The position numbers were made by a program, and so were the translations under genes. Of a stretch of 64,000 nt of DNA, positions 24,721 through 28,758 are shown piece after piece. Each line of letters begins with the position of its first letter. Position 1 is the first letter of the stretch. The stretch is from positions 22,112 through 86,111 of the forward strand of contig NZ_JBOGCC010000278.1 in assembly GCF_051656525.1 (NCBI RefSeq), given 5' to 3'. Origin of the DNA: Clostridium sp. (GTDB lineage: Bacteria > Bacillota > Clostridia > Clostridiales > Clostridiaceae). The notes under the pieces were generated by a model. It searched no databases, was not told the origin of the DNA, and saw only the letters and a program-made list of their open reading frames with translations.

Positions 24721-24760
24721 AAAAAAAAACAGGGAGCCCCGCAAGGGGCTCTCTGCTATT
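24721..24760. terminator. Terminator at a convergent junction (copy 1 of a 40-bp repeat)
   Basis: A9-cagggagcccc-gcaa-ggggctctctg; near-identical to 32249..32288. Confidence 0.85.
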
Positions 24761-25160
24761 CCACACTTGCCAAATCTAAGATTTGACGAGCGCAGTCCGC
24801 GGTAAATTTCTTTCGGAGTACTAAGTATACTCTATCATAGAAGTCCGGGATAATGGATGCAGCAGTGGATACAATATTTGCGTTGCATTCACGCAAAGTA
24901 ATTCGTACCAATCCAACTATCTTGTCAGTGTGACCATTCGGAATAAACGTCAAATGGTTACTGAGTTTGGATAGTTCTGATTCTATCAATGCTGCGGCGA
25001 TGCCCTCCACACCGCCAACAATCACTCGATATAACCTACATCTGGAGACACCGATATCTTTAGCGATATGGTCTACTCCTAACCCCCATAACGGGTCTTT
25101 ACTTGCGACCCGCACGTATTCAATTGCTGCATTAAGAACGTCCGATTTGTTCTTATACAT
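24756..25160 (-). CDS. TetR-like HTH protein 3
   Basis: KSDVLNAAI...GVDHIAKDIGVSRCRLY. Confidence 0.65.
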   Translation of the reverse strand: MYKNKSDVLNAAIEYVRVASKDPLWGLGVDHIAKDIGVSRCRLYRVIVGGVEGIAAALIESELSKLSNHLTFIPNGHTDKIVGLVRITLRECNANIVSTAASIIPDFYDRVYLVLRKKFTADCARQILDLASVE

Positions 25161-25576
25161 CAGAATTCCCTAAAGATAATTGCTTTGCACATATCTTCGT
25201 CTAGCCGCAAATCTTCCAGACGCTCCACCATGCTCCACACCGCATTGGCATTAGCTGGATTACGATTCATATAATCAGTAATAACTGCCATGTATATAGG
25301 CGTTAGCTTACTGAAATACATCGAGGCTATCACATGTGCACGCTCACCTTTGAGAAGTTTAGCATATGCCTTTGACAGCAAGTACAGGTAGTTGTTAGCT
25401 ACCAGTTCCTCTATCGTCATTCCAGCTTTGTAAAACATGTTTCTGCGGATACCGGCTTTATCGCAGATCTGTTGAATAGACAATGCCTCTCTATAATCAC
25501 CCTGCACGTACTTGTGCATATTGATTATTAAGTGGCGTAAAACTTCCGGGGCGGTAGCGCGTGGTTTAAGATTCAC
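25160..25576 (-). CDS. TetR-like HTH protein 2
   Basis: LSIQQICDKAGIRRNMFYK...IEELV. Confidence 0.7.
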   Translation of the reverse strand: MNLKPRATAPEVLRHLIINMHKYVQGDYREALSIQQICDKAGIRRNMFYKAGMTIEELVANNYLYLLSKAYAKLLKGERAHVIASMYFSKLTPIYMAVITDYMNRNPANANAVWSMVERLEDLRLDEDMCKAIIFREF

Positions 25577-26049
25577 TTAGAACCTCGCACGAACGCGATT
25601 GAAGCATCAGAGCCAATACGTGCAGCAATACGTACTGCAGTACGGAAAGTTTCAAATGATAGCGATGGGCAAGTGATATGCCATTTAACCACGGCGTCAT
25701 CAAAACCGCCTGTGTTGAGCGGCATACGCTCTGCCATATCTAATACAATACTTGGCAGATTGCTTAACGTTGCTGAAATTGCGCCCATATAAGCTTCGAT
25801 AGTTACTGGGGCTATCTGCGAATTGATCTTATTGCTGACTTCCTTCTCAGCGTCTTTCCACAGTTCTACAGCAATAACATCGATATCATAGAAGTAACGA
25901 TACAGCGAGGTGCGCGTTACTCCAGCTGCCGCTGCCAACGAACCGGCATCAACAGACGCTGGTGTTATATACTTAAAGTATTCGTTCGCTACAGCTTTCA
26001 CGTGATCTACGCGAGCGCGTGAGCGCTTCTGATTTGGGATGTTTCGCAT
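25573..26049 (-). CDS. TetR-like HTH protein 1
   Basis: PNQKRSRARVDHVKAVA...SLAAAAGVTRTSLYRYF, a canonical TetR N-terminus. Confidence 0.85.
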   Translation of the reverse strand: MRNIPNQKRSRARVDHVKAVANEYFKYITPASVDAGSLAAAAGVTRTSLYRYFYDIDVIAVELWKDAEKEVSNKINSQIAPVTIEAYMGAISATLSNLPSIVLDMAERMPLNTGGFDDAVVKWHITCPSLSFETFRTAVRIAARIGSDASIAFVRGSK

Positions 26050-26081
26050 TCTATTTCTCCATTAAAAAATCGTTGTGTTAC

Positions 26082-26465
26082 TTAGATGCCACAGTACTGT
26101 GGCTTGTTAAAGATCTCACACTCCCAGTCTTTTGGGAGCTTTCCACGTAGATCCACTACCGACCAGAGCTCAAAATCAACTCTGGTAAAGTATCTTCCAT
26201 CGATGAAGAAGCAAGTCTTCTCTGGATATAATGCAGAGTGACCAGCCAATGCCATTCTTGGCACCTTTGATTTCAGCACTGCTTCAGCTTCGGCCGGTTC
26301 TAACCGAAGCTGTGGGAATCTTTTATACACGCGATATGCTTTATCGCTTGCATATGGGAAAGGTTTACGCTTACCATCCCATAGCTCTTTCTCCACTACT
26401 GCCACTTTCTCAATAGTGGCATTTTCAATCATTGTATCATGATTGAACCGTTTCAAATCCTTCAT
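26082..26465 (-). CDS. Hypothetical protein (127 aa)
   Basis: GGAG SD; in the same cassette as the TetR genes. Confidence 0.75.
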   Translation of the reverse strand: MKDLKRFNHDTMIENATIEKVAVVEKELWDGKRKPFPYASDKAYRVYKRFPQLRLEPAEAEAVLKSKVPRMALAGHSALYPEKTCFFIDGRYFTRVDFELWSVVDLRGKLPKDWECEIFNKPQYCGI

Positions 26466-26480
26466 ATCTAATCTCCAAGA

Positions 26481-26765
26481 TTAGTGCATTCTGCACTTTG
26501 GAATAGTAATATGATTTAATCCAGGTACACCCACGAATTTACCAATCACTACCAATCGGCAGACATCAGTTGCTGAATCGTCTAATCGATTCTTAGGTGC
26601 AGTGCACTCATTGATGCATGCTCTTAACCAATCGGCATTTACGCCGTTGGTTTCGAACTGGGTTTCAATTTTAAGACCCGCATACATGCGGGAAGCTGGT
26701 ACTTGAATAGTCATGATGCGAGTCCTCAATCCAAAATTAGTAACGTTATTGTCACTGTTCACCAA
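26481..26765 (-). CDS. Hypothetical protein (up to 94 aa; start uncertain)
   Basis: First ORF after the promoter motif; a GAGG-preceded ATG lies further downstream. Confidence 0.6.
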   Translation of the reverse strand: MVNSDNNVTNFGLRTRIMTIQVPASRMYAGLKIETQFETNGVNADWLRACINECTAPKNRLDDSATDVCRLVVIGKFVGVPGLNHITIPKCRMH

Positions 26766-26766
26766 G

Positions 26767-26776
26767 ATAATATATG
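26767..26776 (-). promoter_or_regulatory. Putative early promoter CATATATTAT with upstream T-tract
   Basis: Exact motif copy just after a terminator, heading the TetR cassette. Confidence 0.65.
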
Positions 26777-26799
26777 TCTGAAAAAAATTTCATTATAAA

Positions 26800-26819
26800 C
26801 CTACCCCTTTCGGGGTAGG
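26800..26819 (-). terminator. Terminator after the 26829 gene
   Basis: cctacccc/ggggtagg 8-bp stem, GAAA loop on minus strand. Confidence 0.8.
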
Positions 26820-26828
26820 CTTTAGTTT

Positions 26829-27467
26829 TTATTCTTCAGGGAAGAACGAATCGATGTTCAGACGTGTTGCTTCTGAAGCATACAGTGAAACCGCATAGCT
26901 TGGGTTAGCGCGACGACGCACTGCTTTCGGGTTAACTGTTTCAGCATACACTGTCATCAGATGCAGCATACGAATCATCAGCTCACGCTCTGATGCCTTC
27001 AGGTGATGTACGTTGGAGAAGACCAGCGTACGCTCGAATGCACCGGTTTCAGACGACTTGATGGTATCCAGCAAGTGCTGCAATACTTCATGGACGTCGT
27101 CACGGTTCAGTGTAGTCAGGCTACGGAACGTGTTGTATAAACCTGAAGTAGCGCTTGCACGCAGCTGTACGTTTTCTGCAACCTTACGACATTCGTGGTT
27201 AAAACGATTGATCGTATCTTTACAGATAGATACACGCGCCGGATTATGTGCCGGGCCAACTACCGCAACTTTATTAAACATGTCAGGGTTGGCTTTACGC
27301 AGAGGCGGCTTGTCATTTACCGGGTTTTGTGCTTTCGGTTGCTGAACTTCACGACGCTCTTTCTGCTGAGGTGCTGGGTTCTTCTTTGGTTCTTCCAATG
27401 GCATCTCTACGCCATCTTCGGCTTGAGCTGCATCGGTGTTCAACAGTTCTTCTAATTCGCTATTCAT
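26829..27467 (-). CDS. Conserved hypothetical protein
   Basis: Start moved to MNSELE (GAGG SD); disordered N-terminus, helical C-terminus. Confidence 0.75.
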   Translation of the reverse strand: MNSELEELLNTDAAQAEDGVEMPLEEPKKNPAPQQKERREVQQPKAQNPVNDKPPLRKANPDMFNKVAVVGPAHNPARVSICKDTINRFNHECRKVAENVQLRASATSGLYNTFRSLTTLNRDDVHEVLQHLLDTIKSSETGAFERTLVFSNVHHLKASERELMIRMLHLMTVYAETVNPKAVRRRANPSYAVSLYASEATRLNIDSFFPEE

Positions 27468-27474
27468 AGTTGCC

Positions 27475-28758
27475 TCAACGGATATGTCTACGGAAATCAT
27501 ACTCAGCCGTATCCTGTTCGTTACCATGCATCGCACTCATAAAGCCGTACATGATATATGATTGTATCTGTGTGATACCTGATGCTGCACCACGTTCGGT
27601 CTTGGACATGATGTGGCCTACGCAGTCAGCACAGAAACCAGGTGGCTTATGTTTACATAGTAATGGTCGACGCATCTGGATTACTTTACCGACATCAGAC
27701 TTGTCAATCGGCATTGCTTTACCAGTAACCATCTTGTTGAATCCTGCATCGATGCCGTATAGCTTCAGACTATGGTCATCAAGCTTAATGGTCTGCGTAA
27801 TTTTAGTACCGCATGGTTCAGGTGATACTTTGATGTTCTGTGTGATCTGCATGTAGTTAGATACACCGTAACCACCTTTTGCAGTATCCGCACCACGGTC
27901 AAAGGAACCTTGACGAGCATCGTTAAACAATGCAGGTAGTTTATCTGTTGGTATACCTTCATCCAACGATTCAGTGATTAAGTCATAATCACCATCTTCG
28001 TGGAACGCATCTACTGCACCGAACATATACAACTGCTTGAATCGACGAACCTTAAGTGTTGCGCCAGACACATAGAAGTCGAGTGACTCACCGTCTTCTG
28101 CCAGATATTTCTTGTCAAGCTCAACTGCCTGCTTACTGATCTCTACCAGTTGTTGACGCGTTGGCTTGCCACCACATTTAGCAAGTTCAGCTTTGATGAA
28201 TTTCCGAACTTCTTTAGACGCGATGAATGTACGCTCACTACCGGTTGGTGCAATCAGTGGCGCTAACGATGTCAACTGAGATAAGGCGGTCAAATGGTTT
28301 TCTACATTTGATGCTTTAACTAAGTTAGTTCCATTAGTGTCTACATCATCATCGACTGTGCGGGGAGCGAAGATTGGTACTAAAGACTTAGCATTCATCT
28401 TCTTGTTCTGGAACTCTACCTTGTCCCCGAATGGCCAGATTACGCAAATCCAATTATAAATGGCTCGGCCGTACGTTGTACGAATTGGCTTAGGATGATT
28501 AGGGAAGTGATCAGCTGGAAAATCCATTGCGTATCTAAAATCATATAACGGTTCTCCGGCTTTAGCATCTTCAATGATAGCCCAAGCCTTTAGTTGTCCA
28601 TCGTAATAGTAAATACCGTCCTCACGATAATCAATATCGTAAGGTTCCGGCACGAAGTCTGGCGGCAGTCTGGATACGTTAAAGATCGTAGATGTCCACG
28701 ATCTCCATTTCCAGCGTTCTGCTTTACATGCCAGCAGAAATAGATCGAATTTCTTCAT
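27475..28758 (-). CDS. Virion RNA polymerase beta' C-terminal fragment (phiKZ gp80-like)
   Basis: RRPLLC...FCADCVG matches beta' RSPLTC...CAKCYG; bridge-helix-like RQGSFDRGADTAKGGY; ends MHG. Confidence 0.88.
   Translation of the reverse strand: MKKFDLFLLACKAERWKWRSWTSTIFNVSRLPPDFVPEPYDIDYREDGIYYYDGQLKAWAIIEDAKAGEPLYDFRYAMDFPADHFPNHPKPIRTTYGRAIYNWICVIWPFGDKVEFQNKKMNAKSLVPIFAPRTVDDDVDTNGTNLVKASNVENHLTALSQLTSLAPLIAPTGSERTFIASKEVRKFIKAELAKCGGKPTRQQLVEISKQAVELDKKYLAEDGESLDFYVSGATLKVRRFKQLYMFGAVDAFHEDGDYDLITESLDEGIPTDKLPALFNDARQGSFDRGADTAKGGYGVSNYMQITQNIKVSPEPCGTKITQTIKLDDHSLKLYGIDAGFNKMVTGKAMPIDKSDVGKVIQMRRPLLCKHKPPGFCADCVGHIMSKTERGAASGITQIQSYIMYGFMSAMHGNEQDTAEYDFRRHIR

Follow-up and report, generated by a model that had tools for sequence, protein, structure and literature searches.

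Three shortened TetR-like genes in a putative early operon of an uncultured chimallivirus-like phage

Nucleus-forming phages have their own polymerases and sequestered DNA, so a bacterial-type sequence-specific repressor has no obvious place in them. What, then, would such a phage do with three? The question is raised by three coupled open reading frames of 158, 138, and 134 amino acids (P1, P2, and P3; 26049-25573, 25576-25160, and 25160-24756 on the minus strand, exactly as originally predicted) in the window, a 64,000-nucleotide stretch of contig NZ_JBOGCC010000278.1 from a Clostridium sp. assembly. Three repressor-like genes in one putative early operon speak either for deliberate interference with DNA that lies beyond the phage nucleus or for a further layer of phage gene control. 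We read the locus as an accessory five-gene early operon of an uncultured chimallivirus, in which three shortened TetR-like proteins (mini-TetRs) act as DNA binders with host DNA as the favored target, and we give this reading a probability of roughly 0.55. The host-DNA part, taken by itself, is tentative, and we rate it somewhat below even odds. We treat the finding as a lead. It concerns a shortened form of a family that is very well known, here in unusual genomic surroundings.

The contig is 117,768 bp long and has a GC content of 44.5%, compared with 29% overall for the 3.7-Mb assembly, and because of this difference we regard it as a mis-binned phage fragment. Three further contigs of the bin (C120, C269, and C24; 42 to 45% GC) may also derive from this phage. 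A split multisubunit RNA polymerase beta subunit is encoded at 27475-28758 (phrog_2962), and its best match, in Vibrio phage pVa-21, is only 37% identical. The window also encodes a family-B DNA polymerase (phrog_3011), and a 711-amino-acid protein matches the PHROG nuclear shell protein (chimallin, phrog_4795). Based on the RNA polymerase beta subunit, the family-B DNA polymerase, and chimallin, we assigned the window to a divergent, uncultured, chimallivirus-like jumbo phage.

The TetR family is defined on its N-terminal DNA-binding region (PMC13176608), and the corresponding helix-turn-helix (HTH; PF00440/IPR001647) was found in P1 and, indirectly, in P2 and P3. Judged by its sequence, P1 is TetR-like. 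It aligned in register with the AcrR N-terminal domain (E value, 0.0014), and an exhaustive phmmer search over 1.84 billion representatives returned three relatives of 166, 169, and 171 amino acids that were 27 to 36% identical to P1 over their full length. Two of these, P0004 and P0007, exceeded the Pfam TetR_N cut-off, with 24.7 and 28.0 bits, respectively. The resulting four-member family (158 to 171 amino acids) had 22 invariant positions, and its profile matched 37 PDB sequences, all of them TetR-family by their listing names. The best PDB alignment (5gpa; E value, 5.7e-9) covered profile positions 15 to 122 and thus ran past the HTH into the C-terminal domain, to about alpha6. P0004 (166 amino acids) and P0007 (171 amino acids) were 31% identical to each other, and the longest contig listed for each was the same 2,646-bp contig; the two genes probably lie side by side in a different uncultured element, and the shared contig hints that P1-type genes occur in tandem there as well.

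A metagenome scan recovered full-length bacterial TetRs of 202 to 224 amino acids that carry TetR_N together with TetR_C_22 or TetR_C_15. These chromosomal proteins, from marine and freshwater metagenomes (loci L024-L032), were 45 to 48% identical to P1 over residues 1 to 53, its N-terminal arm and HTH, and the predicted recognition helix, TRTSLYRYF, was identical in P1 and in the bacterial proteins. For instance, residues 2 to 53 of P1 were 48% identical to a 202-amino-acid protein with TetR_N and TetR_C domains (E value, 2e-12). After residue 53, no similarity between P1 and the full-length bacterial TetRs was found, and the latter differ from P1 in having a full C-terminal domain. Their gene neighbors were housekeeping genes (dnaB, alr, and radical SAM), which were uninformative on function, and the palindromes upstream of them yielded no shared operator candidate. 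On one of these bacterial contigs (L027:3602-6538), the DnaB helicase gene is interrupted by a LAGLIDADG intein.

For P2, membership is supported by a profile match and, more weakly, by the predicted fold. It matched phrog_14982 (E value, 1.6e-6; residues 30 to 127), a family without a functional name that we consider TetR because it matches the same host-bin genes as PF00440. Its AlphaFold2 model (predicted local distance difference test [pLDDT], 72.3) has seven helices, and all of its top 50 PDB matches in Foldseek were TetR-family proteins (TMq, 0.24 to 0.50). For P3, support comes from fold and from profile-profile comparison. It resembled P1 over the HTH (BLASTP, 0.007) and the P1 family as a whole (hhalign, 9e-4), and its eight-helix AlphaFold2 model, for which 14 sequences, bacterial TetRs among them, were aligned, had a mean pLDDT of 81.6 and a predicted template modeling score of 0.69. 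Its top 50 PDB matches were likewise all TetR-family repressors (TetR, EthR, EbrR, and others), 49 of them with a Foldseek probability of 1.00 and, for those 49, a TMq of 0.41 to 0.64. The P3 model had no convincing viral match in a fold search of BFVD (best E value, 0.077). When compared locally by hhalign with five TetRs from the bin, P1, P2, and P3 aligned in register on the HTH (P = 2.4e-4, 3.1e-5, and 7.9e-3, respectively), while the two small proteins encoded ahead of them in the operon, S1 and S2, served as negative controls and gave 0.79 and 0.45. The TetR-type HTH of the original prediction is therefore borne out in all three proteins, in P1 by sequence, in P2 by profile, and in P3 by fold and profile-profile comparison. 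Triplication of the trio in situ could not be demonstrated, as the similarity between P1 and P3 was marginal (0.007 to 0.06) and P2 resembled generic TetRs at least as closely as it did P1.

What the three proteins share with the TetR family (PF00440; AcrR 2qop, FadR-like 5gpa, TetR, and EthR) is the alpha1-alpha3 HTH, the G..R/K..Y.F pattern, and an all-helical fold, with the P1 profile aligning to about alpha6 of 5gpa and the P3 model superposing on TetR and EthR. What sets them apart is their size (134 to 158 rather than about 185 to 230 amino acids), a missing or vestigial alpha8-alpha9, the lack of a TetR_C or named NCBIfam subfamily (all NCBIfam TetR subfamily matches were far under their cut-offs), and their arrangement as three consecutive genes of a lytic phage that forms a nucleus.

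In the usual layout, alpha1-alpha3 bind DNA, alpha4 follows, alpha5-alpha7 form a triangle, and alpha8-alpha9 make up the dimer interface (PMC13176608). The P3 model ends in a 12-residue alpha8 and has no alpha9, and in the seven-helix P2 model most of the alpha8-alpha9 region is absent. In P1, the position that pairs with residue 120 of 5gpa (195 residues) is followed by only 36 residues. Searches with P1, P2, and P3 matched no TetR_C family in Pfam. By comparison, 100 of 100 PDB chains among the matches listed (TetR-family by entry titles) had 171 to 211 residues. In 41 bacterial genomes, the TetR_N open frames among the matches listed were mostly 184 to 400 amino acids long, and frames of less than 150 amino acids made up 3 of the 150 matches listed, with 72 further matches beyond these. 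The C-terminal domain typical of the family, although not defining for it, runs from alpha4 to alpha9 with the alpha8-alpha9 interface, and to judge from length and, for P2 and P3, the models, the trio does not have it. P1, P2, and P3 are thus unusually small TetR-fold proteins, and the shortened C-terminal domain of the original prediction holds, with 134 to 158 amino acids and most of alpha8-alpha9 predicted to be lacking. The trio would rank among the smallest TetR-fold proteins and would be useful for asking how small a C-terminal domain can be and still allow folding, pairing, and DNA binding.

The reduced C-terminal domain bears on several ideas of what the proteins do. A role as small-molecule sensors is weakened by it. 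The proteins could also be dominant-negative partners that heterodimerize with host TetR regulators and poison them, an idea to which the closeness of the P1 N-terminal domain to those of bacterial chromosomal TetRs lends something. TetR dimers form via alpha8-alpha9, however (PMC13176608), and the P3 model with its 12-residue alpha8 and no alpha9, as well as the seven-helix P2 model, would offer little of this interface; the likeness of P1 to host-type TetRs is, moreover, limited to the DNA-binding domain. Because the trio appears to lack most of alpha8-alpha9, we consider such pairing very unlikely.

A TetR fold can also be put to other uses: SlmA and RefZ are TetR-fold proteins with non-transcriptional roles. 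With these as precedents, the trio might be a DNA-anchored modulator of division or of the cytoskeleton, a nucleoid organizer, or a small-molecule sponge, and three different paralogues in a fixed ratio could build a complex. The P1 relative P0007 matched NCBIfam SlmA and RefZ weakly and generically (E value, 0.03), but these matches were no better than those to many TetR subfamilies and lay far under the cut-offs. There was also no PADLOC match, and the reduced C-terminal domain leaves little space for a ligand pocket. We regard a non-transcriptional role as doubtful.

The three genes are the last of five in a minus-strand operon that runs from 26822 to 24722 as one compact unit of hairpin, promoter motif, genes, and terminator. 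Its features are as follows.

26800..26822, minus strand: terminator-like hairpin CCTACCCC-GAAA-GGGGTAGG (26819-26800) with a T-rich tail, ending the upstream operon of the RNA polymerase beta and phrog_7825 genes
26758..26795, minus strand: putative early-type promoter (by motif recurrence), a T-rich stretch, the core CATATATTAT (26776-26767), and then GTGAAC
26481..26714, minus strand: S1, 77-amino-acid orphan protein with 4 Cys, first gene of the operon, ATG at 26714 (gene calls)
26082..26465, minus strand: S2, 127-amino-acid orphan protein (gene calls)
25573..26049, minus strand: P1, 158-amino-acid TetR-family protein, ATG start, with a basic N-terminal arm, a TetR_N HTH, and a shortened C-terminal domain
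25160..25576, minus strand: P2, 138-amino-acid TetR-like protein, GTG start (PHROG match, hhalign, AlphaFold2, and Foldseek)
24756..25160, minus strand: P3, 134-amino-acid TetR-like protein, ATG start (BLASTP, hhalign, AlphaFold2, and Foldseek)
24722..24751, minus strand: terminator hairpin GAGCCCC-TTGC-GGGGCTC (24751-24734) with a T-run, member of a 10-copy hairpin family

The upstream operon (RNA polymerase beta, then the phrog_7825 protein) ends at 26829 on the same strand. P1 and P2 overlap by 4 nt (GTGA, in which the GTG start of P2 lies over the stop of P1) and P2 and P3 by 1 nt (the ATG of P3 over the stop of P2). A purine-rich ribosome-binding site precedes every start of the operon, reading GAGGA before S1. 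Four Logan contigs, each assembled from a different other run, were gene-called independently and gave the same series of 77, 127, 158, 138, and 134 amino acids, and because these four assemblies agree we place the S1 start at ATG 26714; the alternative 94-amino-acid TTG frame would extend into the promoter. The two small genes predicted ahead of the trio are therefore both present, but the first of them encodes 77 amino acids from an ATG, not 94 from a TTG. Its product, S1, had no match in Pfam, PHROG, NCBIfam, or PADLOC.

These data also address whether the trio might be what is left of bacterial TetR genes that were captured and are now decaying, without any present function. This would fit the truncated length, the extreme divergence, and the lack of relatives of P2 and P3. 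On the other side, the frames are intact and have ribosome-binding sites and start/stop overlaps, the four-member P1 family keeps a length of 158 to 171 amino acids along with its 22 invariant positions, and the P3 model is confidently folded. Across assemblies of the four other runs, the trio was invariant except for I43V in P2 (two runs), while the neighboring S1 had gained 18 substitutions. Decay thus strikes us as highly improbable. The S1 differences were seen against L020, a Logan contig of 12.3 kb that belongs to this phage as well, and consisted of the 18 substitutions, mostly synonymous, and two small indels, all confined to a stretch of about 100 bp in S1 (26506-26607); this variable patch looks like localized recombination or diversification. 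Runs in which the phage is present include SRR30016097, SRR18474585, SRR18474652, and SRR18474653.

The operon is an accessory insertion and not part of the chimallivirus core, as had been suggested from the sequence alone. Two conserved blocks of core genes converge at the point where it is inserted, and its flanking genes have orthologues in pVa-21 (BLASTP, 6e-16 for the phrog_7825 protein and 2e-27 for a CYTH-like protein) that lie 49 bp apart with no operon between them. No TetR_N or P1-family match, even at an E value of ≤1, was found in phiKZ, RAY, 201phi2-1, pVa-21, or pVp-JHP1101, and neither this contig nor the remaining high-GC contigs of the bin had a further TetR-like open reading frame. 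For P1, P2, and P3, a word-indexed search across 5.8 billion proteins brought back self matches and nothing else, and neither a tblastn search of 50,697 phage records nor scans of IMG/VR yielded a match; across these three collections, no relatives of P2 or P3 were detectable. TetR-type genes are uncommon in this phage family. Because its GC content matches that of the contig, the operon was not very recently acquired. PADLOC returned no match and hence no link of the operon to defense or anti-defense.

The timing of expression is suggested by the promoter. The motif CATATATTAT occurs in nine exact copies on the 117.8-kb contig, compared with about 0.2 expected by chance over the two strands, and all nine are intergenic minus-strand copies that precede a start codon by 30 to 65 nt. 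About five additional copies with one mismatch have the same flanks (consensus, tttcagaCATATATTATcnnGTGAac), and of these roughly 14 exact and one-mismatch copies, all but one lie upstream of genes on the minus strand. The promoter of the operon (26787-26757, reading TTTTTTTCAGA-CATATATTAT-CTTGGTGAAC) is a full-consensus copy of this AT-rich motif, and the chimallin gene (phrog_4795) is preceded by another copy at a distance of 53 nt. Reviews and dRNA-seq studies characterize the early promoters of jumbo phages by a strongly conserved, AT-rich motif, about 10 nt in length and located near -10, and in phiKZ the early motif has a T-rich part upstream and also occurs at the chimallin gene PHIKZ054 (PMC7598289; PMC8244752). 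Because CATATATTAT matches these descriptions, including the copy at chimallin, it is a well-founded inference from sequence that it is an early promoter of the virion RNA polymerase type. The originally predicted early-promoter cassette is in keeping with this, as an early-type motif precedes the unit in a strand-consistent manner and the chimallin gene is preceded by one too. The predicted boundaries were also recovered, with hairpins at 26819-26800 and 24751-24734 and the motif at 26776-26767. The downstream hairpin is one of ten near-identical hairpins on the contig, and this ten-copy family supports a genuine terminator.

Placement behind one of some 14 near-consensus promoters is also what would be expected if the mini-TetRs regulated the phage itself, being imported into the phage nucleus, binding phage DNA, and timing the early-to-middle switch or shutting off early operons. 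It is common for phages to produce repressors of early genes early in infection. Yet a consistent dyad was not seen in the promoter consensus, and all palindromes that recur on the contig were terminator hairpins. Five other chimalliviruses run their temporal program without the operon, and import into the phage nucleus is selective. Self-regulation is the main alternative to a host target, although in our view an unlikely one.

In the reading that we prefer, with the mini-TetRs as early DNA binders, a promoter resembling those of the virion RNA polymerase would drive the five-gene operon, and P1, P2, and P3 would be co-produced early in infection. Each mini-TetR would combine an intact three-helix DNA-binding domain with a reduced helical domain (about alpha4 to alpha7 or alpha8) that lacks most of alpha8-alpha9. 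The proteins would bind specific DNA, occlude promoters or operators, and block transcription as TetR proteins do, probably with little or no effector control, and they would pair via a non-canonical interface, as homomers or with one another. Host, or cytoplasmic, DNA would be the favored target because the cytoplasm is where early phage proteins are synthesized while the phage DNA is enclosed, because the predicted recognition helix of P1 equals that of chromosomal bacterial TetRs, and, by analogy, because another such regulator sits on host DNA. The latter is gp094 of Erwinia phage RAY, a regulator of the XRE type that has been observed on the chromosome of the host (bioRxiv 10.1101/2023.02.24.529968). 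Compared by description, gp094 and the trio are both non-core HTH regulators encoded by nucleus-forming phages, but gp094 belongs to another HTH superfamily (XRE) and is a single gene. By this analogy, host reprogramming by the mini-TetRs is plausible.

A more speculative version, which we think rather unlikely, is that the trio, without the canonical dimer interface and effector pocket, assembles together as an uninducible, phage-specific DNA-binding complex, in which the P1 helix, captured from a host-type TetR, constitutively occupies host operators or phage early promoters. If true, such an inter-assembled, uninducible mini-TetR complex would represent a TetR-derived regulator of a new architectural class, serving takeover by nucleus-forming phages.

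It is important to note that several results weigh against reading the mini-TetRs as early DNA binders of this kind. P1 alone scored 18.2 bits against Pfam TetR_N, under the cut-off of 24, and neither P2 nor P3 had a TetR_N match from Pfam. The P2 model is only moderately confident, with Foldseek E values of 0.08 or worse, and the AlphaFold2 alignments held bacterial TetRs, which may have biased the models towards the TetR fold. Judging by length and by the models, the canonical dimerization module is missing or vestigial. A TetR homodimer classically binds a palindromic operator and is released from it by a small-molecule effector. The contig-wide palindrome count offered no recurrent operator-like palindrome, and the host is not readable from the bacterial bin, the contig being mis-binned. 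Overall, the interpretation put forward in the original prediction is partly supported.

Some minor features of the surrounding sequence were also observed. The phrog_7825 gene (26829-27536) can be read as a 235-amino-acid GTG frame that overlaps the end of the RNA polymerase beta gene, and gene calls on related contigs start it at ATG 27467 (212 amino acids). The hairpin family occurs in both orientations, GAGGGGC-N4-GCCCCTC and GAGCCCC-N4-GGGGCTC, with window sites at 24734-24751, 7235, 16918, 32262, 38714, 48982, and 52301, among others. The promoters at 26776 and at contig position 104001 (equivalent to window position 81890, outside the window) have a common 5' leader, GTGAACAG..ACAAT.A..TTACT.AT..TTGGATTGAGGA, and an extended upstream part, AATGAAATTTnTTTCAGA, with a TGAAA/TTTCA inverted repeat, is common to four promoters. 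These shared leader and upstream parts could represent a duplicated promoter-leader module or a regulatory site.

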